31,484 nt of DNA from an uncultured Litorilinea sp. (GTDB lineage Bacteria > Chloroflexota > Anaerolineae > Caldilineales > Caldilineaceae), in assembly GCA_937922105.1 (NCBI GenBank), contig CAKZVN010000320.1:1-31484 (forward strand), in the 5' to 3' direction. The notes under the pieces were generated by a model that was not told the origin of the DNA, searched no databases, and saw only the letters and a list, made by a program, of their open reading frames with translations. The position numbers and the translations under genes are program-made. Below, in pieces: positions 1-10,960 of this stretch (position 1 is the first letter of the stretch; each line of letters opens with the position of its first letter).

Positions 1-16
1 GTCCGCAGTGCGGACA
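1..16. promoter_or_regulatory. Candidate parS palindrome, copy 1 (window starts inside it)
   Basis: GTCCGCAGTGCGGACA at 1-16; bases 1-22 are identical to 1204-1225. Confidence 0.6.
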
Positions 17-103
17 CCTCTCTCCTGTACATCCGATATAATTCGTCGGGTTGCCTGGGCAATGCTTCGCCGTCGCCAGGCGACTAAGAACCTTCCAACA
101 GGT

Positions 104-544
104 TTAGCGCCGCCGGATTTCGTCAAGCAGTTCGGCAGGCAGCAAAATCCGCAGCCCCAGATCTGCGTACACCTGCTCCCGGATTTCGATCATGTGCCTG
201 CGATCTAGGCTGACCAAATAGTCCACCCGGGCCTTAAGCGCGGTGGCAAAGTGGGGCGCATCCTTGAAGGCCGTATGGGGCTGCATCTGCAGCACTTCGT
301 CCCGGGTGGGATCCACGATAGGGAAGGGGATGGTCGCCTAGATGGTCTCAAAGGCCGGCAAGGCCTGGGGACGTTTGGCGGCCAGATTCTTCGCCGTCTC
401 CAAGAGCACGAACTTGTTGAGCACCAGGCGCAGTTGCCCACGTTGGGCAAAGTGGATGATCTCCCGGGATGCGCCGCGTGCCGAATCGCTGGCGGCAAAG
501 AGCACGCTGGCGTCGATGAAGACCGCTAGCGTCCCTGGTTCCAT
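104..544 (-). pseudogene. PIN-domain (VapC-like) toxin interrupted by one in-frame TAG
   Basis: ORFs 338..544 (VFIDASVL) and 104..316 (KDAPHFATALKARVDYLVSLDRRH) are in the same frame. They are separated only by TAG at 338-340 and seven sense codons; joined, they form one PIN domain resembling the intact PIN at 18759-19286. Confidence 0.8.
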
Positions 545-828
545 TGCTCTTCGCTGAGACCGTATTCCTGTTCGATGAGTTCACCGCGAATCTCACGGCC
601 CGCTTCGATCCACTCTTCCAGGGTGATGCCCTTCTCCTTGAGCAGTTCGCCCATCTTGTCCAGCGCGTCCGCGGCCACCATCTCCTGCGGGCTGATGAGA
701 ATGCCGCGCTCGGTCTCCACGAAGGCGATGAGATCGCCCGGCGCTAAGCCCAGCTTTTGGCGGATTTCCTGGGGAATGGTCACCTGCCCCCGTTCCTGTA
801 GGCGCGAGACCTTGAGTTTTGTCGTCAT
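526..828 (-). CDS. AbrB/MazE/SpoVT-family antitoxin
   Basis: MTTKLKVSRLQERGQVTIPQEIRQKLGLAPGD is a typical swapped-hairpin AbrB motif; the gene overlaps the PIN start. Start taken at ATG 828. Confidence 0.88.
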   Translation of the reverse strand: MTTKLKVSRLQERGQVTIPQEIRQKLGLAPGDLIAFVETERGILISPQEMVAADALDKMGELLKEKGITLEEWIEAGREIRGELIEQEYGLSEEQWNQGR

Positions 829-870
829 ATCCTCGGCTCCCTGAATCATACTGTCATACTTCATGAATCC

Positions 871-879
871 ATTATAGCA
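871..879 (-). promoter_or_regulatory. Extended -10 promoter of the AbrB-PIN operon
   Basis: Minus strand reads TGCTATAAT (TGn-TATAAT) about 45 bp upstream of the abrB start. Confidence 0.6.
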
Positions 880-1038
880 GGGAACTAGGCCGGATGGAAG
901 CGGATCGGCGCGGGCATGGGCAGACAAGGGGGGAAGCAACATGCGCCCGCCTGCCATAGCAGGAAGAACGCCAGGACCTACCCAAGAGATTTTGGGGGAC
1001 ATGGCGACCCGGTGCGGTCCAGGCCGCCTGGCGACAGG

Positions 1039-1932
1039 CTAGGCCTTCCGCTCCAAATCCGCCAAGCGCCGACCGGCCTCCTCGATGATCCGGCGCAGCA
1101 GGCGAATCGCCTCGTCCTTGGCTTGGGGCTCGACCTGGGTGAGTTGGGGCTGTTGCAGGGAACGATAGATGCGCTGCATGGCCGCCACACCGCCCGTCCG
1201 GCTGTCCGCAGTGCGGACACCTCTCACCAGTGATTGCGGGGAGGGTGCAGCGTTTTCGGCCTGGCGGGCTGCGATCAGTTGGTCCCGGTCGAGATGACCC
1301 GCGATCACCTTCTCAATGAAAAGGCGCCGGATATGAGGGTCCTCGATCTTGGCCAACTCCTCGGCCGTGCGCACGGGGATGTCGGCAGTGCGGACAGCTT
1401 CCTCCAGATCGGGATAGCGCACAATGCTGAGCAACGTGCCCACATAGCTGCTGCTCTTGCCGATGCGCGTGGCGATCTGGCGAATGCTGTAGCCCATCTC
1501 CTGCTGCAGACGCAGATAGCCGCGCGCCTCTTCCACAGGGTGGAGGTCCTCGCGCAGCACATTCTCGGTGAGGGCAATCTCCATCATCTGCTGATCGGAG
1601 AGGTCCCGCACCTGGACCGGAATCGCCGTCAAACCGGCGAGGTGGGCCGCGCGTAACCGGCGTTCGCCGTAGGCCAACTGGTAGCTGCGCCCCTTGCGGC
1701 GCACCAGCAGATGCCCATAGAAGCCATGCGCGCGCAGGGAGGCGGCCAGTTCCGCCACACTCTGGTCGTCGAAATGCCGGCGGGGCTGAAAGGGGTTGGG
1801 GCGAATCTGGGCGATGGGAATCTCGCGCACGTCCAGCTCGGTGGTGTCGCCGCCGATGCGATCCAGGATGCCGCCGGCATCCAACGTCGCCTGGGCGGTT
1901 GCGTCGGTGAGTTGGGCGCGCTTACGCGTCAT
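1039..1932 (-). CDS. parB: ParB/Spo0J-family partition protein
   Basis: IRPNPFQPRR box I, GERRLRA arginine patch (box II), ENVLREDL, HTH YSIRQIATRIGKSSSYV; start at ATG 1932 overlaps the parA stop. Confidence 0.95.
   Translation of the reverse strand: MTRKRAQLTDATAQATLDAGGILDRIGGDTTELDVREIPIAQIRPNPFQPRRHFDDQSVAELAASLRAHGFYGHLLVRRKGRSYQLAYGERRLRAAHLAGLTAIPVQVRDLSDQQMMEIALTENVLREDLHPVEEARGYLRLQQEMGYSIRQIATRIGKSSSYVGTLLSIVRYPDLEEAVRTADIPVRTAEELAKIEDPHIRRLFIEKVIAGHLDRDQLIAARQAENAAPSPQSLVRGVRTADSRTGGVAAMQRIYRSLQQPQLTQVEPQAKDEAIRLLRRIIEEAGRRLADLERKA
1203..1219. promoter_or_regulatory. Candidate parS palindrome, copy 2 (inside parB)
   Basis: Perfect TGTCCGCA-G-TGCGGACA; encodes VRTAD in ParB. Confidence 0.65.
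1380..1396. promoter_or_regulatory. Candidate parS palindrome, copy 3 (one mismatch, inside parB)
   Basis: TGTCGGCAGTGCGGACA; again encodes VRTAD. Confidence 0.55.
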
Positions 1933-2707
1933 GGTGCAAGACCTCTCTGGCCAAGGCCCGATAGGCTTCGGCCACGTTGCTGTCGCTGGCGTAGGTGAGA
2001 ATACTCTCACCGGCGATGGGCGCTTCCTTGAGGCGGACGTTGAGCTTGATGACCGATTTGTAGATATGCACCCGATTGGCCAGCACCTTGTCCACCGACG
2101 CCAGGACCTCGCGGGCATGGAGCGTGCGCGTGTCGGCCATGGTGGCGAAGAGGCCGGCGATCTTCAGTTCCCGGTTGATCTTGCGCTGCACGGTGGCGAT
2201 GGTCTTCATGAGCAGGTTGACGCCTTTGAGGGCCAGATAGTCGGCCTGGAGCGGGATCATGACCTCGCCGGCGGCGGCCAGCGCGTTGACCGTGAGCAGC
2301 CCCAGGCTGGGCGGACAGTCGATGAGGATGAAGTCGTAACGCTCCTTCACGGAGGCCAGAATCTCGCGCAAGATCATCTCGCCCATGGTCGCCTTGTTGA
2401 GATCTAGTTCGGCCGCCGAAAGCTCGATATTGGACGGCGCCAGGTCTACCCCGGCTGCCGTTGCACGGATCACGTCGGTCAAGGCTGGATGCTCTGCATC
2501 GGCGATGACAGCGCAGATCACGCTGTAGATGGTCTCTTGGAGGCTTTCCGGGTCGATGCCCACCGACATGGTCAAAGAGGCCTGGGGATCCAAGTCGATG
2601 AGCAACACCCGGTGGCCCTGTTCTTGCAGGGCCGCCCCCAGATTGAGCGTGCTGGTTGACTTGCCTACGCCGCCCTTTTGATTGGCAAGCGCAATAATGC
2701 GCGGCAT
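1922..2707 (-). CDS. parA: ParA/Soj-family ATPase without N-terminal HTH
   Basis: MPRIIALANQKGGVGKST (deviant Walker A), LLIDLDPQASLT, DFILIDCPPSLG (Walker B); RBS AGGAG upstream of ATG 2707. Confidence 0.96.
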   Translation of the reverse strand: MPRIIALANQKGGVGKSTSTLNLGAALQEQGHRVLLIDLDPQASLTMSVGIDPESLQETIYSVICAVIADAEHPALTDVIRATAAGVDLAPSNIELSAAELDLNKATMGEMILREILASVKERYDFILIDCPPSLGLLTVNALAAAGEVMIPLQADYLALKGVNLLMKTIATVQRKINRELKIAGLFATMADTRTLHAREVLASVDKVLANRVHIYKSVIKLNVRLKEAPIAGESILTYASDSNVAEAYRALAREVLHHDA

Positions 2708-2723
2708 ATTTTTCTCCTGCGAG

Positions 2724-2740
2724 TGTCCGCAGTGCGGACA
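2724..2740. promoter_or_regulatory. Candidate parS/operator palindrome, copy 4 (just upstream of the parA RBS)
   Basis: Perfect TGTCCGCAGTGCGGACA about 17 bp upstream of the parA ATG. Confidence 0.7.
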
Positions 2741-2808
2741 GTTACCACTCCATGCTATACGCGCCGTAGAGAGACTCAAAACTGCATGGATGGTGGTCGG
2801 TTGACGGT

Positions 2809-3957
2809 CTAGACGGCGATATCCGGCATGGTTGCCGGCGCCGCCTCCTCAACCAAGAAGCGCAGTCCGATCTCTCCCGTCTTCAACCCCTCAAAGGCCG
2901 GCGCATCGCGACAGAGGAACTTCACCTCGCGTTGGATGGCCGTGCGGATGCCCGGATGGGTCAACTGGCGTTCCATCCAGACGTCGTTGCCCACTTCCTC
3001 CGCTTGGGCGCGCGCGCGGCTGTCCGGGTCCAAGTAACCGTCGGGGGCGCCATAATCCTCCTCAATCGCCTTGCGCAACCAACCACGCGGGTTTTTGATG
3101 CGATCCGGATGCACTTCTTCCAGAAAGTCCAGAAAGTCCAGTTTTTCGCGGATACGGGCGTGGCCAAACTGGTCGACCAGTTGGCGTGCAACGCGTTTAC
3201 CCAATCCCCGTTCTATCAAAGCAACAACAGCGTCGTCCTCGGGGATGGGTGGCGCTTCGTTTTGCGGCGATGCTGCGCGCATTGTTCGGTGGTTGTTGTT
3301 ATGGGTATTGTTGCTTTGTTGTTGTTCGATCGGTAAATTACCAGACCCCCCCGGTAAATTACCAGACCCCCTTCGGTAATTTACCGAACCCCCCTCTTGC
3401 TGTGGGGCGGGGGCTGCTTCCGGCTGTGCCACGCGGGCCGGACGACGAGTCGCCTTGAGGTTATCCAGATTTGTGCGGCAGCGTTCCACCAGTTCGGCAT
3501 GTTTCTGTTGCAGCAGGGGCGGCAGGGTAGCGAGCTGGTCTAGGGTCAATAGCTTGGGGGTGAGGACGACGTCGAATTTATAGCGCATATCCGGCCCTTC
3601 GCCCTCCTCGCGCGCAAAGAGCAGTTCATGTTGCTGCAGAATCTCGATCAGGCCCGGGTAGGTATAGGTTTTGCCGTGCACCACCTTTTGGTAGCCGGTG
3701 AGGACGCGTCGCTCTTTGATGCCCAGGATGGCGGCCAGGAGGTTGATTGAAGGCCAACAGGTACCCGCCTTTTGGTCCTTGTCGGCGTGGCAGAAGCTGC
3801 GTAGCACCTCGTACAGCCCCCAGGCGTCGTTGCCGACCAGGGCGCGCCAGTAGGTGCTTTCGTAATTGGACAGAATTTGGAAGCCTGCCCGGAGAGGATC
3901 GGTGACGACGCCGTTGATGTCAACAGGAATGTCGTCGGGGAAAGTGGTATTCGCCAT
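2809..3957 (-). CDS. Putative replication initiator (N-terminal HTH, low-complexity linker, C-terminal KNPRGWLRKAIEEDY domain)
   Basis: WGLYEVLRSFC...CWPSINLLAAILGI resembles the HTH of phage/plasmid initiators; internal iteron-like repeats; directly upstream of parAB; AGGAG is 9 nt before ATG 3957. Confidence 0.7.
   Translation of the reverse strand: MANTTFPDDIPVDINGVVTDPLRAGFQILSNYESTYWRALVGNDAWGLYEVLRSFCHADKDQKAGTCWPSINLLAAILGIKERRVLTGYQKVVHGKTYTYPGLIEILQQHELLFAREEGEGPDMRYKFDVVLTPKLLTLDQLATLPPLLQQKHAELVERCRTNLDNLKATRRPARVAQPEAAPAPQQEGGSVNYRRGSGNLPGGSGNLPIEQQQSNNTHNNNHRTMRAASPQNEAPPIPEDDAVVALIERGLGKRVARQLVDQFGHARIREKLDFLDFLEEVHPDRIKNPRGWLRKAIEEDYGAPDGYLDPDSRARAQAEEVGNDVWMERQLTHPGIRTAIQREVKFLCRDAPAFEGLKTGEIGLRFLVEEAAPATMPDIAV
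3331..3394. repeat. Three tandem 21-22 bp iteron-like repeats inside rep
   Basis: CGGTAAATTACCAGACCCCCC / CGGTAAATTACCAGACCCCCTT / CGGTAATTTACCGAACCCCCC; each contains the dyad GGTAA-W-TTACC. Confidence 0.85.
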
Positions 3958-3986
3958 GTTGCACATCTCCTGTGGGTCCCAGACGG

Positions 3987-4128
3987 GCCTTGAAGGAGGT
4001 GCAAAGACAGAGGCTTGACATCACCGGTGATCTCGCATATGCTGAAGGTGCCAACCTAAGCCTTGAGATCGCCTTGTTTGGTGATGTCAGTTACTTTTAA
4101 GCCTCTGTTCCTTGCATCTCTTGCAGGC
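3987..4128. other. Long imperfect inverted repeat (rod-like hairpin) upstream of rep
   Basis: Nested pairings: 3994-4004 with 4112-4122, 4007-4016 with 4099-4108, 4016-4025 with 4080-4089, 4026-4034 with 4065-4073. Confidence 0.8.
4015..4043 (+). promoter_or_regulatory. Strong sigma70-type promoter firing away from the rep CDS
   Basis: TTGACA (4015-4020), 17 bp, TATGCT (4038-4043). Confidence 0.75.
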
Positions 4129-4175
4129 GGAACTAGGACGAAGAATAGGCTCCGTTTCGGGGCTTATTCTTTTTT
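4050..4175 (+). ncRNA. Candidate ~125-nt counter-transcribed (antisense) RNA
   Basis: Bounded by the consensus promoter and an intrinsic terminator; no ORF with an RBS; internal hairpin GTTCC-TTGCA-tctct-TGCAG-gc-GGAAC. Ends are approximate. Confidence 0.5.
4141..4175 (+). terminator. Intrinsic terminator
   Basis: 13-bp stem AAGAATAGGCTCC/GGGGCTTATTCTT (two G-U pairs), 5-nt loop, then a T-run. Confidence 0.75.
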
Positions 4176-4253
4176 GATGGATAGAGTGTTTGGATCTGAT
4201 CCGATTTCGTGGACACCGAGTTAAGGGTATACTGCCCGCAAAGGAGGTGTCCG

Positions 4254-4322
4254 ATGAAACGCCAACAGTTTGACCGTCCCGGCGCACGTGCGCCAGGGTC
4301 CGAAAGGACCCCATCCCCGTAA
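4254..4322 (+). CDS. Possible 22-aa small ORF MKRQQFDRPGARAPGSERTPSP
   Basis: AAGGAGGT at 4241-4248, then ATG 4254 to TAA 4322; it overlaps three hairpins, so it may instead be non-coding. Confidence 0.25.
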   Translation: MKRQQFDRPGARAPGSERTPSP

Positions 4323-4362
4323 GGGGATTCAGACCGCCACGACCCTTGTAGACTCTTGACAC

Positions 4363-4396
4363 CGCCCAGGCAGCTCCTAACTGCCTGGGCGTTTTT
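4363..4396 (+). terminator. Intrinsic terminator / REP-like hairpin
   Basis: Perfect 11-bp stem CGCCCAGGCAG/CTGCCTGGGCG, 7-nt loop, followed by TTTTT. Confidence 0.7.
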
Positions 4397-4571
4397 GCGC
4401 GTCTGCCAGAGCCCAATCTCCCAATTCGCTAACCTCACGGGCTGCAGGGCGCTTGCAGGCGGGATGCGCCCTTGCGCGGCGCCCGCGGTGCGCTTGCGGC
4501 GCGGGGTGTGGTAGCATAAGGACCATGAGTCGCCTGTCCTGATGTGCCCGCCGCGCCGGAAGCCGCTGCCC

Positions 4572-6800
4572 ATGTCCCGCGAACCGACCACCGTCGCCAA
4601 ATTGCGCGGCCTGCCCTGGAGCGTCGCCTGCAACGCCACCGCCCAGGTCCACGCGCAGTTGACCTTCTTCGGCGCGCTCTTCATTCTTTTTCTCAACCAG
4701 CTGGGGCTGAGCAAGACCGCCATCGGCTTGGTCCTGGCGCTGGTCCCCTTTTCCTCGGTGTTGGCGCCGCTGGTGGCGCCCTTCACCGCGCGCTACGGCT
4801 ATAAGCGCGTCTTCGTGATCTTCTATGCCGCGCGCAAGGTGGTCACCCTCTTCATCTTGGCAGCGCCGTGGGTGGCGGCGTGGGGCGGCACCACCGCGGT
4901 CTTTTGGTACATTGTGGCGGTGATTGCGTCCTTTGCCGTGGTGCGCACCATCGAAGAGACCGCCTACTTCCCCTGGGTGCAAGAGTTTGTGCCCAACCGC
5001 GTGCGCGGCAAATACACCGCCATGAGCAACATTGCCACCGCCTCCACCGGCTTTCTTGCGGTCTGGGCTGCGGGCCAAGTGCTGGAGCGCAGCAGCGGCT
5101 TGGAGGGCTTCCTGCTGCTCTTTGCCGTGGGCGCGGGCTTCGGCTTTGCCTCGGTGGCGGCGTCGCTCTTCATCCCTGGCGGCGCGGCCCAGCCCGAACT
5201 GCCCACGCGCGGCTGGCGCCAGGTTTTGACCGGCCCCGCGCTGCGCGACGGCAGCTTTCGCCGCTATCTGTTGGGCGTGGCGCTGGTGATCTTGGGCACC
5301 GCGCCGCTGGCGACCTTTCTGCCCCTCTACCTGGAGGAGCGCGCCGGCTTGACCTCGGCCCAGGTGGTGCAGGTGCAGATGGGCAGCCTGTTGGGGATGC
5401 TGGTCTTTTCCTATTTGTGGGGCTGGGCCGCGGACCGCTACGGCTCCAAGCCGGTGATGCAGGCGGGCGGCTGGCTCTTGGTGGGCATGCCGCTGCTCTG
5501 GTGGCTCTTGCCCGGCGGGCAGACGTGGAGCTTAGCCGCCGCGCTGGGCATCGCCTTCCTGCAGGGCAGCGCCACCCTGGGCTGGGGCATCGGGTCGGGT
5601 CGCCTGCTCTTCGTCAGCGTCGTCCCCACCGAACACAAGCTGGACTACATGGCGCTCTACTTCGCCTGGGTGGGGTTGGTCAGCGGGCTGAGCCAATTTG
5701 CCGGCGGCGGCGCGCTGGACGCCGCACGACGTCTGGAGGGCACGCTGTGGGGCGTGGAATTGCACGCCTATGTGCCGCTCTTTGCCGTCTCCGCGCTCTT
5801 GCCCCTGGCTGCCATCGCGCTCTTCGCCCGTGTGCGCGGGGATAGCCCCCTCTCCACGCGCCAAGTCGCCAGCATCTTCCTGCGCGGCAACCCCTTCCTC
5901 GCCATGGGGTCGCTGATTCGCTACTACACCAGCCAGGACGAGGCGCGCACGGTGAGCGCGACCGCCGCGCTGGCTGCGCCGGGCAGCCGCCTCACCGTGG
6001 ATGAGCTGCTGGAAGCCCTGGCAGACCCGCGCTTCAACGTGCGCTTCGAGGCCATCCAGGCCCTGGCGCGGATGCCCGCGGACTCGCGCATCACCGACGC
6101 GCTGGTCAAGACGCTGCACAGCCGCGCGCCTGCGCTCAGCTCCATGGCGGCGTGGGCGCTGGGCCGCGGCGGTCATCACGCCGCCATCCCCGCGCTGCGC
6201 GCCGCGCTGGAAAGCGACTATCGCTCGGTGCAAAGCTACGCCGCGCGCGCACTGGGCACCCTGGGCGATGCCGCCGTGGGCCGCGAGCTGTTGGCCCGCC
6301 TGGAAGCCGCCACCGACGAAGGCTTGAGCTTGGCCTATGCCACCGCGCTGGGGCGCTTGCAAGTCGCCGAGGCGCTGGACCCCATCCTGGCGCGCTTGGC
6401 CGCGGCCGCGGATGAATCGGTGCGCGCCGAGTTGGCCTTGGCCGCGGCGCGACTGGTGGGCGACGAAGCGCCCTACATTCGCCTGGCGCGCAGCAGCGCC
6501 AGCCAGCCGGGCACCAGCTATGCCCAGGCGTTGGCTACGGCCCACAAACAACTGGCGCGGCGGCTGCGCGGCAATGCGCCCCGCTTGGCTCTCTTGACCG
6601 AGTTGGCCGACTGCTTTGCGCGCGAAGAAGTGGACGCGGCCGCGGTGGGCTTGGCCGCGTGGTTGGCGGAGATGCCGCCCGGCCTTTTGGCTGCGCCGGC
6701 AAGCCACGTGGCGCGCGTCGCGGCCGCGCAGCTCCAGCGCCACGCGGCCGCGCGGCCCGAATACCTGCTCCTCGCGCTCCACGCCCTGACGGTGGGCTAG
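4572..6800 (+). CDS. MFS transporter fused to C-terminal HEAT (PBS-lyase-like) repeats
   Basis: About 12 hydrophobic segments with MFS loop motifs (ARYGYKR, AADRYGSKP), then repeats such as LLEALADPRFNVRFEAIQALARM and LRAALESDYRSVQSYAARALGTLG. Confidence 0.85.
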   Translation: MSREPTTVAKLRGLPWSVACNATAQVHAQLTFFGALFILFLNQLGLSKTAIGLVLALVPFSSVLAPLVAPFTARYGYKRVFVIFYAARKVVTLFILAAPWVAAWGGTTAVFWYIVAVIASFAVVRTIEETAYFPWVQEFVPNRVRGKYTAMSNIATASTGFLAVWAAGQVLERSSGLEGFLLLFAVGAGFGFASVAASLFIPGGAAQPELPTRGWRQVLTGPALRDGSFRRYLLGVALVILGTAPLATFLPLYLEERAGLTSAQVVQVQMGSLLGMLVFSYLWGWAADRYGSKPVMQAGGWLLVGMPLLWWLLPGGQTWSLAAALGIAFLQGSATLGWGIGSGRLLFVSVVPTEHKLDYMALYFAWVGLVSGLSQFAGGGALDAARRLEGTLWGVELHAYVPLFAVSALLPLAAIALFARVRGDSPLSTRQVASIFLRGNPFLAMGSLIRYYTSQDEARTVSATAALAAPGSRLTVDELLEALADPRFNVRFEAIQALARMPADSRITDALVKTLHSRAPALSSMAAWALGRGGHHAAIPALRAALESDYRSVQSYAARALGTLGDAAVGRELLARLEAATDEGLSLAYATALGRLQVAEALDPILARLAAAADESVRAELALAAARLVGDEAPYIRLARSSASQPGTSYAQALATAHKQLARRLRGNAPRLALLTELADCFAREEVDAAAVGLAAWLAEMPPGLLAAPASHVARVAAAQLQRHAAARPEYLLLALHALTVG

Positions 6801-6929
6801 GGTGCTGGCGGCTTGGTGTCTCCATGCACTCCAGCCGTGCTCAAACGATGACTTTCGTCATCGCCGAGCGCCGCGGCTGCAACTGCGCCAAACTCGTTGG
6901 GCGCCCTCTTTTTTGGCGCGCGAAGCCCC

Positions 6930-6958
6930 TTGACGCGCGCCCTGGCCCGTGTTACGCT
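6930..6958 (+). promoter_or_regulatory. Sigma70-type promoter of the DUF4157 gene
   Basis: TTGACG, 17 bp, TACGCT preceded by TG (extended -10). Confidence 0.65.
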
Positions 6959-7106
6959 TATGGGCATTGACTCCGACTTCAGCGGAGCGCCGTGCTCGTT
7001 GCCGGTGCCTGCGCAGGTTGTCTTACTCCCCATCCGCTGTCTGCCTGCTGCCTGTGCCGCGTTCACCCGGGGCCGGGCCGCCTCTCTGTCCAGGAGCTGT
7101 GCGCGC

Positions 7107-9281
7107 ATGAGCCAGAAAGCCTCCACACCGACCGCTGCCCCCCACCAACCCGCGGCCCAACCCGGCACGCAGAGCGCCGGGCAAGTTGCCCACGCCGCGC
7201 CCCTGCCGGCGGCGGTCCACCAACTGGCAGCCGCTGGCCGCGCGCCCAGCGCGCGCGATGTGCTCTATTTGCAACGAGCCGCGGGCAACCGGGCCGTGAC
7301 GCGGCTATTGGCCCCACGGCGGGACGCGGTCGTGCAGGCCAAGCTCACCGTCGGCCCGGCAGACGACCGCTATGAACGCGAAGCGGAGCGCGTCGCCGAT
7401 ACGGTCACCCGCGCCATCCAGCGCCGCGCCACGCCCGCCGCGCCGGCGGAGGAAGCCGCGCCTTCCCCCCTGGGCGGCGCGCTCCAGCGCGCGGCGGAAG
7501 GCGGGGTGGGCTTGGCGGGGGGCGCGCTCACGCCGGCGGTGGAGCAGGAGATTCAGCGAGCGCGCGGTGGCGGGCGCCCATTGGCAGCCGGCGTGCGCCG
7601 CCAAATGGAACAGCAGATGGCGGCGGATTTCAGCGGCGTCAAAGTGCACACCAACCGCGAGGCCGACCGCCTGAGCCGCACCATCCAAGCCCGCGCCTTC
7701 ACCACCGGGCAAGACATCTTCTTTCGCAGCGGCGCCTATCAACCCAACAGCCGTGGGGGCCAACATCTCTTGGCCCACGAATTGACCCACGTGGTGCAAC
7801 AAAACGGCCCCAAAGTCGCGCGCAAAACGGCCCCCGCCGTCGCCCAACGCACAGAGGACGGGGTGGTGCAGCGCGCCATCGGCTTCGAGTTCCAGACCCG
7901 CTGGGGCATCGTCAAAAATGTGCCCGACACCCCCCAGAAAAAAGGGGTGGGGACGGCGCTCAAGAACTTTGGGCGCGGGGTGAAGAACTTTTTCACCAAA
8001 AAGCCGCGCCCGCCCGCCGGCCCGCGCGAAGGCTATATCCCGCCCCAGCCGGGCCGCAAGCACGAGCGCTTTCGCAAGGCCCACGACCATCTGACCGACG
8101 GACACATCAAGCTCTCCACCGACGACAGCAGCAACGCGGTGGGCGCCGAAATCGAATGGGTGATTGACCCGCCCCTGCCGGACGACATCAAGCCCGCGGA
8201 GTTGGACGACGTGATCATGAGCTTGATGATGCACGTGGCCCAACTCTACGCCTTCAAGGACCGCGACTCCTTCTTCCTCTCCGAAGCCACCGGCAACCCG
8301 GCCCACGCCGAGATCGAGATCCAGCCCGGCATCAAGAGCAACGGGGCGCGGGATATGTCCGCCGCGGCCCAGATCACCGCCGGCATCAAATTCAACCAAC
8401 TGTGGGACCTCTTCCAGGATGTGGCGCGCAACAACCGCGTCAGCGACCCCGAACGCCAACAGGGGGTGGGCCACTTCAAAGGCAGCGCCGCCGCCATGAC
8501 CATGGTCAATGCCGTCATCAAGTCCAAGGTGGAAGGCAGCAACGAACTGAAGGCGCTCTTGGCCTTCATCGTGCGCTACGCCCTCATGAACAAGGAATAC
8601 TCCGCCAAGGACAAACAGGTCATGACCAGCAACGGCAAGGACGACTACGACCTCGCCGCCGACTACGCCAAAGTCAACACCCAATTCCTGGCGCGCACCG
8701 ACTTCGCCACCATGTTCGACATGTTGCCGCTGGAAGAGCGGCGCAAATACGGCGGGCGCAAACATTCGGAAGACGGCAATACCGACAACTCGGCAGCCTT
8801 CGTCGCCCTGGTGGACCAGGTGCTGCGCGAGGCCTCCCCCACCCCCATGAACCTGGACGACCCGGTCTACGGTCGCGGCATCAAGGGCGACAAAGCCACG
8901 CGCAGCGTGATCTACTTCCCCCTGACGCGCCGCGACTGGCTCGCCAGCATGGCGAACGGCGAAGACAAACTCAGCGGCGCCTCCGCCTATGCCCAACAAC
9001 AGGGCTACGCCGAACATCTGGAGAGCATGGGCAACATCAACAAAAAGGCGGGCAAGCTGGACAAGGTGAGCAGCGACCTGCCCGGCAAACGGACCGGCGT
9101 CATCATCGAATTCCGCAACAACACCGAGCCGCAAGCCCCCGCCAAGTGGGTGGACTACATCCGCCAGTCCGTGGCGTACATCCAGGAACTCAACGCCCGC
9201 AAGTCCATGACGGACGTGCAGGATTGGAAACTGGTGGAGAACAGCCAAAAGGCGCGCAGCATGAACTTCTGGGGCCGCTAG
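7107..9281 (+). CDS. eCIS core domain (DUF4157) protein with uncharacterised C-terminal domain
   Basis: VQAKLTVGPADDRYEREAERVAD, DFSGVKVHT, ARAFTTGQDIFF and LLAHELTHVVQQ are hallmark DUF4157 motifs; AGGAG RBS 10 nt before ATG 7107. Confidence 0.9.
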   Translation: MSQKASTPTAAPHQPAAQPGTQSAGQVAHAAPLPAAVHQLAAAGRAPSARDVLYLQRAAGNRAVTRLLAPRRDAVVQAKLTVGPADDRYEREAERVADTVTRAIQRRATPAAPAEEAAPSPLGGALQRAAEGGVGLAGGALTPAVEQEIQRARGGGRPLAAGVRRQMEQQMAADFSGVKVHTNREADRLSRTIQARAFTTGQDIFFRSGAYQPNSRGGQHLLAHELTHVVQQNGPKVARKTAPAVAQRTEDGVVQRAIGFEFQTRWGIVKNVPDTPQKKGVGTALKNFGRGVKNFFTKKPRPPAGPREGYIPPQPGRKHERFRKAHDHLTDGHIKLSTDDSSNAVGAEIEWVIDPPLPDDIKPAELDDVIMSLMMHVAQLYAFKDRDSFFLSEATGNPAHAEIEIQPGIKSNGARDMSAAAQITAGIKFNQLWDLFQDVARNNRVSDPERQQGVGHFKGSAAAMTMVNAVIKSKVEGSNELKALLAFIVRYALMNKEYSAKDKQVMTSNGKDDYDLAADYAKVNTQFLARTDFATMFDMLPLEERRKYGGRKHSEDGNTDNSAAFVALVDQVLREASPTPMNLDDPVYGRGIKGDKATRSVIYFPLTRRDWLASMANGEDKLSGASAYAQQQGYAEHLESMGNINKKAGKLDKVSSDLPGKRTGVIIEFRNNTEPQAPAKWVDYIRQSVAYIQELNARKSMTDVQDWKLVENSQKARSMNFWGR

Positions 9282-9398
9282 GCCCTGTCCGCAAGATCGC
9301 AACACCGCCCCCGCGTCGAGCACGGCGAAGGGTCCCGGCGGACACCCCGCCGGCTCGCCCTGAGTGGAGAACCCTCCGCCGGCAATGCCCCCTCCTGG

Positions 9399-9428
9399 TT
9401 GACAAGCCGCCAGCCCAGGCCGTATGAT
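9399..9428 (+). promoter_or_regulatory. Sigma70-type promoter
   Basis: TTGACA, 18 bp, TATGAT upstream of ORF 9521. Confidence 0.6.
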
Positions 9429-9520
9429 ACGCTGCGGCGCGCATAGGAATGTCTCTTTGCAATCGCGCTGCCTGTCCGCCCTAGTTTCCATCCTACTACC
9501 CGGAAAGAGAGACTTGATCT

Positions 9521-10702
9521 ATGCGCAACCGCTCGTTGACTGTGTTGCACCGCGCGGTCTGGATGCTGCTGTTGGCTGTGGCGCCGCTTCTATCCATGGT
9601 GGCGCGACCTCTCCCCCTCTGGGCAGCCTCGCCTGCCCAGGTCCCGCCCACCCAGGGCGCGGCTCAGGCGCCCGCCGAGGAGAGCGCCGCGGTCACCCTC
9701 TTGGCCTATTTCGAGTCCGATGTGCTGGAGACCGCCATCGCCGATCTGGTCACCACCCTGGCGTTCTTCGCTGACGGCTCGTTTGAATTGACGATCATCT
9801 TCCCCGACATCGAGACCACGCTGACCCTCACCGGAACCTATGCGGAAAGCGAGGCGGGCGTCTTGCTCACCGCGCTCACCATGGAGGGGGAGACGCTGGA
9901 CGAAGTCATCGAGTTGGAGCTGCTCTGGGATGCCGACGACACCCTGGTCTTGGTGGGCGGTTTCGGCGACGAACTCTACGCCGACGACATCATTTTCTAT
10001 GCCGCGGACTCGGCTGCCTACGGCAGCACCGCGGACGGCGCAACCGTCGAAATCCCCGTGGGCGGTGTTTACCTCTCGAGCCTGATCACCAACGACGACG
10101 GCGCGCAGGTGCTGTATGTGCTCAACCTCGTGGAGGACGGCAGCGCCAGCCTCTCCAGCGACTATCTCGACCTGCAGGCGCCCAGCTTTGAGCTGGGCGC
10201 CTGGCGCGTGGAGTGGAGCGAGGAGGGCGAAGGCGTGGTGACGCTGGAATTCACCGGCACGCCTGAGGAGGAGTATGAGGACCCCATCGTCGTGGCGTTG
10301 CAGGTGGGCGAAACCGGCGAACTCACCGTCGGGACGGTCACCCTCTATCCGCTGTCCCGCTTTTCCTTGACGCCGGTGGTGGAAGAAGCCGCGGTCGAAA
10401 TCCTCGCCACCTATGTGACCGAGATCGTGGGCGAGGACGAAGAGACGCTGCGCCTCTTCTTGGCCCTGGCTGCCGACGGCTCCTTCACCCTCACGGACGA
10501 AGAGGAGACCAACACGGTCTATGGTGAGTGGGCACTGGGCGACGAGCGCCTGACCCTGACTCTCTTGGGCGACCAGGAGGGCAACATCCTGGAGCCGCTG
10601 GAGTTGGTCTTCGAGTTCGGCGAGGAAGATGAGCTGATCTTGGTGGAGGCGCCGGCAGACCTCTTCGAAGACGAGGACCTGATCTTCTACCCGCTGGAGT
10701 AA
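9521..10702 (+). CDS. Secreted, very acidic protein with three NlpE-N/lipocalin-like beta repeats
   Basis: N-terminal signal-like segment; repeat motif LxLxxDGSFxL...GxW/Y occurs three times; codon pattern fits a real gene. Confidence 0.75.
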   Translation: MRNRSLTVLHRAVWMLLLAVAPLLSMVARPLPLWAASPAQVPPTQGAAQAPAEESAAVTLLAYFESDVLETAIADLVTTLAFFADGSFELTIIFPDIETTLTLTGTYAESEAGVLLTALTMEGETLDEVIELELLWDADDTLVLVGGFGDELYADDIIFYAADSAAYGSTADGATVEIPVGGVYLSSLITNDDGAQVLYVLNLVEDGSASLSSDYLDLQAPSFELGAWRVEWSEEGEGVVTLEFTGTPEEEYEDPIVVALQVGETGELTVGTVTLYPLSRFSLTPVVEEAAVEILATYVTEIVGEDEETLRLFLALAADGSFTLTDEEETNTVYGEWALGDERLTLTLLGDQEGNILEPLELVFEFGEEDELILVEAPADLFEDEDLIFYPLE

Positions 10703-10735
10703 AGCGCCGCCAGGTGTCGCCTGGGCTGCATGACC

Positions 10736-10763
10736 GCGCCGGGGGGCGACTGCCCCCCGGCGC
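10736..10763. terminator. GC-rich hairpin between convergent genes
   Basis: 12-bp perfect stem GCGCCGGGGGGC/GCCCCCCGGCGC, loop GACT; no T-run. Confidence 0.45.
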
Positions 10764-10870
10764 AAGTGGTTGTTCGGCCCGTCCACCCTCAAACCACGCG
10801 CGCCAAAGCGTGACGCGCCCGGCGGCCCAAGCCGCTAGCCGGGTTGTGGCGCGCCCTGCATCCCTCGGGG

Positions 10871-10893
10871 AAACCCGAAAAGTTTTCGGGTTT
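10871..10893. repeat. 23-bp AT-rich palindrome
   Basis: AAACCCGAAAA-G-TTTTCGGGTTT. Confidence 0.7.
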
Positions 10894-10960
10894 GGGTGAG
10901 CTGCCACCGGCTCGGCAGCCGAAAGCGGGCGGCGATACGCCCGGCGCAACGGGCGGCGCG

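Follow-up and report, generated by a model that had tools for sequence, protein, structure and literature searches.

The DNA stretch analysed here (the window) is an entire contig of 31,484 nucleotides (C320), the longest contig in a metagenome-assembled genome (MAG) of an uncultured Litorilinea species from the phylum Chloroflexota. The MAG comprises 374 contigs and 3.06 Mb at an estimated completeness of 70%. At one end of the window lies a parAB gene pair accompanied by copies of a 17-bp palindrome, and our subject is the probable role of this palindrome as a non-canonical centromere (parS) of the encoded ParB. Both genes are located on the minus strand. The product of parA (1922 to 2707, 261 amino acids) is a Soj-like Walker ATPase with the Walker A motif KGGVGKST and profile matches to AAA_31 (2.7e-59), CbiA and ParA; it carries no N-terminal helix-turn-helix (HTH). 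The co-oriented parB gene (1039 to 1932, 297 amino acids) overlaps parA by 11 nt. Its product combines a ParB_N domain (6.5e-27) with a following HTH_ParB domain (1.7e-13), both matches being over the cut-off, and its closest solved relatives are the Spo0J/ParB structures 1vz0 and 6sdk. The ParB_N domain contains the sequences GERRLRA and ENVLRED, and the corresponding cytidine triphosphate (CTP) pocket motifs, GERRxRA and ENxxRE, are invariant among 30 ParB homologues. The recognition helix reads GKSSSYVGTLLSIV and is followed by IPVRTAEEL.

A search of the window located the palindrome TGTCCGCAGTGCGGACA exactly at 1203-1219 (S2) and 2724-2740 (S4) and with one mismatch, as TGTCgGCAGTGCGGACA, at 1380-1396 (S3). 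Bases 1-16 (GTCCGCAGTGCGGACA) correspond to a fourth copy (S1) lacking only its first T, which is cut off by the contig edge. With up to three mismatches allowed, six strand-matches were obtained against 0.22 expected, a number reached by none of 100 shuffles, and the rest of the 31.5-kb window held no further match at this threshold. The half-site 8-mers TGTCCGCA and TGCGGACA occur three additional times elsewhere in the contig, which is approximately chance level. Two of the copies lie inside parB, S2 in the linker at codons 239-243 and S3 at codons 180-184 just past the HTH. The coding (minus) strand of the site is read as T GTC CGC ACT GCG GAC A, so that the peptide VRTAD occurs twice in ParB (residues 180-184 and 239-243); the mismatch in S3 is a synonymous change from GCG to GCC on this strand. 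S4 is found in the parA leader, where it ends 5 nt ahead of an AGGAGA ribosome-binding site and 16 nt ahead of the parA ATG at 2707, and represents a candidate operator or loading site. A preliminary description of this DNA had reported four copies with none elsewhere in the window, two of them placing VRTAD twice in ParB and one just upstream of the parA ribosome-binding site. Our searches confirmed all of this, including the coordinates and the mismatch.

The motif is restricted to this locus. The remainder of the 3.06-Mb MAG contained zero further copies at up to two mismatches, and none of its other contigs ends in the motif. Elsewhere in the phylum, a set of 400 genomes yielded the exact motif only as five singletons, which lie in unrelated genes and none of which adjoins a ParB. 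For four of them an in-frame reading gives a CPxCG-type zinc-knuckle peptide, in two cases within an Mrp-like ATPase, and such peptide coding accounts for singletons of this kind; single occurrences in L093, L094 (G239, G311) and L095, for example in an Mrp/ApbC-like ATPase, encode CPHCGH or CPQCGQ. A search of IMG/VR yielded 85 motif singletons and no cluster. A dispersed repeat, which the preliminary description had named as a possible refutation, is thus ruled out by the MAG itself, by the 400 genomes and by IMG/VR, and the clustering it had expected from a genome-wide count was indeed seen. Among the plasmids of PLSDB no ParB was more than 60% identical to the one studied here; the best named match, from a Candidatus Chlorohelix plasmid, showed 46% identity over 60% of the query. 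None of the papers searched contained 15- to 17-mers of the motif, and the 8-mer matched unrelated primers only.

Homologues of this ParB number in the hundreds and are nearly all metagenome-derived. Their loci were retrieved in two ways, by scanning contigs of genomes and metagenomes on the basis of alignment and by exact-protein look-ups. Exact TGTCCGCA-N-TGCGGACA sites were present in 12 of the 12 lineages for which the ParB is 58-95% identical and DNA was retrieved (the window, L085/86, L087-89, L097, L069, L098, L006, L099, L007, L100, L101 and L079, of which L006 is a Litorilinea MAG and L007 an Anaerolineaceae MAG). Each lineage carries two to seven exact copies, and two of these always occupy the same two positions in parB. 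Of the 11 lineages with upstream sequence, 8 have an extra copy situated 15-28 bp ahead of the parA start. Five of the loci were fetched after the hypothesis had been formed, and all five fit.

Codon-level comparison separates selection on the DNA from selection on the encoded peptide. When parB was aligned by codon across seven lineages, only 7.3% of the third positions proved invariant over the whole gene and 11% within invariant degenerate codons. Its two best conserved 17-nt windows are nevertheless the palindromes, with 15 of 17 bases invariant in each. At S2 the arms are invariant as DNA in at least nine lineages, in contrast to the centre base and to the linker residues on either side, and the linker around the site is otherwise hypervariable and unalignable. 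The possibility that VRTAD is a functional ParB peptide, with the DNA palindrome as a by-product, would be in line with the location of the first VRTAD within the folded DNA-binding domain and with the near invariance of V180 and R181 even in palindrome-free homologues. However, the centre base of the site is a second codon position that yields Thr, Ser, Asn or Ile, so the middle residue changes while the synonymous third positions around it are frozen. The palindrome bases that extend into neighbouring codons are frozen as well, the outer T and A being kept although they belong to codons for differing residues. Further, a variant class of the site encodes VRNAN with its symmetry intact, the second site sits in the unalignable linker, and identical copies exist in non-coding DNA. 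Because of this codon evidence peptide-level selection can be excluded for practical purposes, and we give a by-product origin of the palindrome hardly any credence. Judging from the alignment, the arms are conserved as DNA and not as protein.

More distant relatives carry the site in arrays. In a Deltaproteobacteria MAG (L008; also L071 and L072) with a ParB of 47% identity, about 24 copies of TGTTCGCAwTGCGAACA are located within 2.3 kb upstream of parA (2662-4927), with irregular spacings of 41-170 bp and unrelated spacers. Both arms have changed in step in these copies, preserving symmetry, and one more copy at the parB linker position encodes the VRNAN peptide mentioned above. Nearby, this locus contains further tandem repeats (22, 145 and 55 bp) which might be an origin. 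In L090, from an AT-rich genome and with a ParB of 49% identity, about 16 copies follow directly after parA and two more are found in parB; most copies of this array have one arm of the sequence TGCTGACA and are asymmetric. In this L090 region (2471-10915), parA and parB lie about 6.7 kb apart, and the gap includes a gene for an FGE-sulfatase. We considered a tandem-repeat origin of the arrays, but Tandem Repeats Finder gave only partial, local units for L008 and no long unit in common for L090; conservation is limited to the palindrome. As read from these sequences, arrays beside parA constitute a centromere-like architecture. The motif was absent from the remoter Anaerolineae homologues L010, L013 and L073-L078 (45-47% identity), where no repeated site could be defined beyond a 7-2-7 palindrome upstream of parA; this palindrome, AGACTTTtgAAAGTCT, lies about 100 bp upstream of parA in L010 and L013 and may be their own site.

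The truncated copy S1 could be completed by comparison. In L085, the 95% identical relative, the gene order parA-parB-antitoxin-PIN is the same as in the window and a full site is found at 2757-2773, 88 bp past the toxin gene, which is also the distance of S1 from its PIN toxin gene. The window aligns base for base with L085 up to the contig stop, and we therefore regard S1 as a real site that is complete at 17 bp in the replicon. The L085 site is centred in a 43-bp perfect palindrome (2744-2786) with 13 extra symmetric bases on each side, TACAGGAGAGAGG-site-CCTCTCTCCTGTA, which marks the 3' end of the parAB-toxin/antitoxin unit and whose right arm extends to about base 29 in the window. The contig break at position 1 was probably caused by this long palindrome. 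As RNA, the 43-nt sequence folds at -44 kcal/mol (z = -9); it lacks a U-tract, so that a terminator function is uncertain.

These folding properties bear on whether the conservation could stem from an RNA hairpin of the parAB mRNA that terminates transcription, stabilises the transcript or affects its translation. The 8-bp GC-rich arms are foldable, S1 sits in the strong hairpin at the operon end and S4 adjoins the Shine-Dalgarno sequence. Yet the sequence itself is kept beyond mere pairing in every copy and lineage, with no G-U or compensatory variety except for one symmetric class switch, and the conserved unit is sharply 17 bp long, 20 of 21 copies showing no symmetry beyond TGT...ACA. In addition, 11 of the L090 copies keep the asymmetric arm which would break a stem, and the arrays are located in non-coding DNA with irregular spacing. 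We consider an RNA-level explanation very improbable.

Site and ParB change together. Homologues with TGTCCGCA-class sites share the ParB region GKS[SK]SYV[GA]TLLS...IPVRTAEEL while those with TGTTCGCA-class sites have GKS[VI]GYVS[SC]LLS, so that the site class covaries with the recognition helix across homologues, a check that had been suggested beforehand. When compared with the canonical parS, TGTTNCACGTGAAACA, the 17-bp site does not match and shares only TGT...ACA. Caulobacter R173 is invariant among parS-specific ParB variants (PMC7383237). By alignment mapping, the equivalent residue here is Ser or Lys (GKSS or GKSK), as opposed to the GKSR of Spo0J and of the chromosomal ParB in the same MAG, and the equivalents of G201 and R204 are inferred from the alignment to be Arg and Glu. 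Going by both the site and the R173 position, this ParB and its site appear to fall outside the canonical parS specificity class. The second ParB of the MAG, on contig C280, is 36% identical and has the canonical sequence GKSRSAVANTLRLL...AGHAR. Two canonical TGTTTCACGTGAAACA sites, the only ones in the MAG, were found on contig C84 (at 359 and 2821). The co-occurrence of canonical sites and a canonical-type ParB with the locus in the window suggests that the MAG runs two orthogonal ParABS systems.

Based on these data, we propose with a probability of roughly 85% that the ParB encoded at 1039-1932 has this palindrome as its cognate, non-canonical parS. The centromere role claimed in the preliminary description is thus supported by the restriction of the motif to the locus, by its conservation alongside ParB homologues and by the covariation with the HTH. 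Direct observations comprise the sites, their locus restriction, the conservation of their DNA and the way in which they covary with ParB, whereas binding, CTP dependence, spreading, partition and autoregulation are inferred. An adjacent Walker-type ParA, a ParB with ParB_N and HTH domains and a clustered, repeated inverted repeat in cis are all present, and by computational criteria the system would classify as a type I ParABS of a secondary replicon whose HTH ParB is of the chromosomal type. The HTH-site covariation together with the intact CTP motif gives support to the predicted specific binding of ParB, with CTP-dependent loading and spreading.

In the proposed mechanism, TGTCCGCA-N-TGCGGACA would serve as the centromere of a plasmid or chromid in what is probably a member of the Chloroflexota. 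A ParB dimer would place one HTH on each 8-bp arm and, if it behaves like characterised ParB proteins, binding to the site would set off CTP-dependent clamp closure and sliding. A partition complex could then build over the approximately 2.7-kb parA-parB-toxin/antitoxin cassette beside rep and its origin, to be segregated by the Soj-like ParA, while the changed recognition helix would keep the system orthogonal to the canonical chromosomal ParB/parS. Three points weigh against the centromere assignment. S3 is slightly degenerate in the window, at a position where the site is exact in all relatives including L085. Because the MAG is only 70% complete, additional copies elsewhere on the replicon are possible, and the edge copy S1 shows that the assembly breaks at such sites. 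The end and start of the contig overlap by only 4 nt, which gives no evidence for a closed circle.

Whether ParB also controls parAB through S4 is a separate question. Type Ia ParA proteins autoregulate through an HTH. The ParA described here has none, which makes control of parAB by ParB plausible, with KorB as a precedent: this ParB-family protein acts as a global repressor via palindromic sites (PMC11790492). In eight lineages a copy occupies the position immediately ahead of the parA ribosome-binding site, although the intergenic sequence around it is not conserved, and we give roughly even odds that S4 is a ParB-dependent operator at which ParB damps parAB expression. Several observations speak against this part of the proposal. 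The sequence known upstream of parA in L085, the closest relative, amounts to 66 bp and contains no copy. A promoter scan called no sigma-70-like promoter around or over S4, where only a weak TATAGC is present 13 nt upstream, and in L007 the site follows a consensus TTGACA-17-TATAAT promoter at a distance of about 60 nt. The latter distance implies that any repression would act by roadblock or spreading and not by promoter occlusion.

A stronger version would make the palindrome purely a transcriptional operator, bound by ParB or another repressor, with the true centromere elsewhere. Besides the KorB precedent, this would agree with the position of S4, which directly adjoins the parA ribosome-binding site and recurs in 8 of 11 lineages. 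On the other hand, most copies lie in parB or downstream of the operon and not at promoters, the arrays of 16-24 copies beside parA have the architecture of centromeres, and the cassette offers no other repeated centromere candidate except repeats internal to the Rep gene. We therefore regard an operator without a centromere function as improbable and retain the parS assignment.

The neighbouring genes of the cassette provide further potential binders. Upstream of parA lies a gene for a Rep-like initiator (2809 to 3966, minus strand), which has a weak HTH_36 match and marks the replicon context. Between parB and S1 are an AbrB/MazE antitoxin gene (526 to 831) and a PIN toxin gene (104 to 544), both on the minus strand. 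The site might be read by the Rep-like initiator, with the copies serving as iterons or an origin, or the AbrB-type antitoxin might use it as the operator of the toxin/antitoxin genes. The proximity of both genes (at most 1.5 kb from copies) and the placement of S1 downstream of the toxin/antitoxin pair and of S4 between rep and parA would fit either reading. The preliminary description had raised these binders as an alternative, and our comparison speaks against them: tblastn finds no Rep, antitoxin or PIN homologue in L006, L007, L008, L009, L069, L087 and L090, so that these homologues are missing from most motif-bearing loci. Moreover, no motif copy exists upstream of the antitoxin gene, and the Rep gene has its own distinct repeats, three 21-bp direct repeats CGGTAAATTACCAGACCCCCC at 3331-3394, each with the palindrome GGTAAATTACC, which are unrelated in sequence to the parS motif. 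Motif-bearing loci have only ParA and ParB in common, which disfavours Rep and antitoxin as well as the RNA hairpin and the peptide-level selection discussed above. We rate binding by either neighbour as extremely improbable.

The same low standing applies to a tyrosine recombinase site used in multimer resolution or integration. Genes of the phage-integrase family adjoin parA in L087, L097, L100 and L101, but no such gene is present in the window cassette or near the sites in L006, L007 and L099. Xer and integrase core sites have arms around a 6-8 bp spacer, and the 8-1-8 palindrome is unlike them. Deletions would also be expected with multiple copies, inverted and direct, placed within an essential gene.

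Compared with described systems, the locus combines known features in a new sequence. It has the same ParB_N CTP pocket, HTH_ParB domain and Soj-like ParA as the chromosomal ParABS systems of B. subtilis, Thermus and Caulobacter with their 16-bp parS, and likewise TGT...ACA-bounded palindromes clustered at parAB with copies within parB, parS inside spo0J being the classical case. In contrast to those systems, the half-site differs at five of eight positions and an extra centre base extends the site to 17 bp, the genes are located beside a plasmid-type Rep and a toxin/antitoxin pair and not at oriC, and a canonical system coexists in the same MAG. The closest analogy is the Bsr systems of Burkholderiales, chromosomal-type ParABS of secondary chromosomes and large plasmids which each have their own canonical-like palindromic parS, the narrow specificity of which avoids incompatibility (PMC5450999). 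The Bsr sites are 16 bp long with a central CG, whereas the centre base of the 17-bp site described here is free to vary and its core, CCGCA, is GC-rich; the host phylum is different as well.

Odd site length has a precedent in KorB and in Vibrio cholerae. KorB of the IncP-1 plasmid RK2 is a CTP-dependent clamp of the ParB family which recognizes the odd-length palindrome OB (TTTAGC-G/C-GCTAAA) and serves partition and repression from sites at or far from promoters (PMC11790492). The likeness lies in the odd-length palindromic site and its ParB-family reader. The present system differs in lacking an evident KorA or TrbA partner and in having an unrelated site sequence, and only four sites were found here, all within the cassette. 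The KorB domain (PF08535) scored 17.1 bits in our ParB, below the gathering cut-off of 22.3, and by this test the system falls outside the KorB family, as it does outside the canonical parS class by the tests above. For chromosome II of V. cholerae, 15-bp fragments of odd length have been described as parS2 (PMC3141006). That system resembles the present one in having a secondary-replicon ParB (ParB2) with a short, odd-length site, and its parAB2 locus is autoregulated; its ParA2 is of a different type and the parS2 sites are spread over the chromosome. The sequence of parS2 differs from our site. Taken together, the site sequence, that of a ParB lineage represented by metagenomes alone, is previously undescribed while the design is an ordinary and well-known one.

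Sister clades of the ParB have other recognition helices, and each carries repeated TGT...ACA palindromes particular to it, 17 or 18 bp long and in many cases located where parB ends at its 3' side (TGTACTTCnGAAGTACA, TGTTTGACnGTCAAACA, TGTCTCCCnnGGGAGACA, TGTCTGTAnnTACAGACA, TGTCCGTCnnGACGGACA and TGTACGTCnnGACGTACA). These palindromes were found at the distant ParB loci L014-L048, L059/L060 and L083. Azospirillum loci carry CGTTCCACnGTGGAACG, which corresponds to the canonical half-site with an extra centre base. It is possible, though doubtful at present, that related chromosomal-type ParBs of Chloroflexota secondary replicons form a graded natural series of 16-, 17- and 18-bp TGT...ACA palindromes, of which TGTCCGCAnTGCGGACA, TGTACTTCnGAAGTACA, TGTCTCCCnnGGGAGACA and TGTCTGTAnnTACAGACA would be examples. 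Should this be true, clamp loading by ParB would tolerate half-site shifts of 1-2 bp, equivalent to a rotation of about 35-70 degrees, and the parB sites plus the parA-leader site would make up a portable, self-regulating cassette carrying its own centromere.

The locus offers a testable ParB-parS pair for a plasmid or chromid lineage of Chloroflexota, a phylum whose replicon maintenance is almost unknown, and illustrates how the coding sequence for the disordered linker of a ParB may harbour the centromere to which that protein binds. The apparent orthogonality to the canonical parS of the same cell is a property needed for multipartite genomes and for ParB-based DNA-labelling tools, and together with the 16- and 18-bp sister-clade relatives the system may serve as a natural data set on the evolution of ParB specificity and half-site spacing. 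Since lineage-specific parS sites on secondary replicons are well established, specialists will likely find it useful rather than surprising.

Two observations concern the accessory genes. In the PIN toxin gene of the window, codon 69 (338-340, minus strand) is an in-frame TAG where L085 has CAG (Gln), so that the toxin gene is broken in the MAG consensus while the antitoxin is intact. In L087, L097, L100 and L101, the parAB genes are accompanied by tyrosine-recombinase genes, extra toxin/antitoxin pairs (BrnT/CopG) and a second ParA-like gene, a gene content consistent with plasmid backbones.

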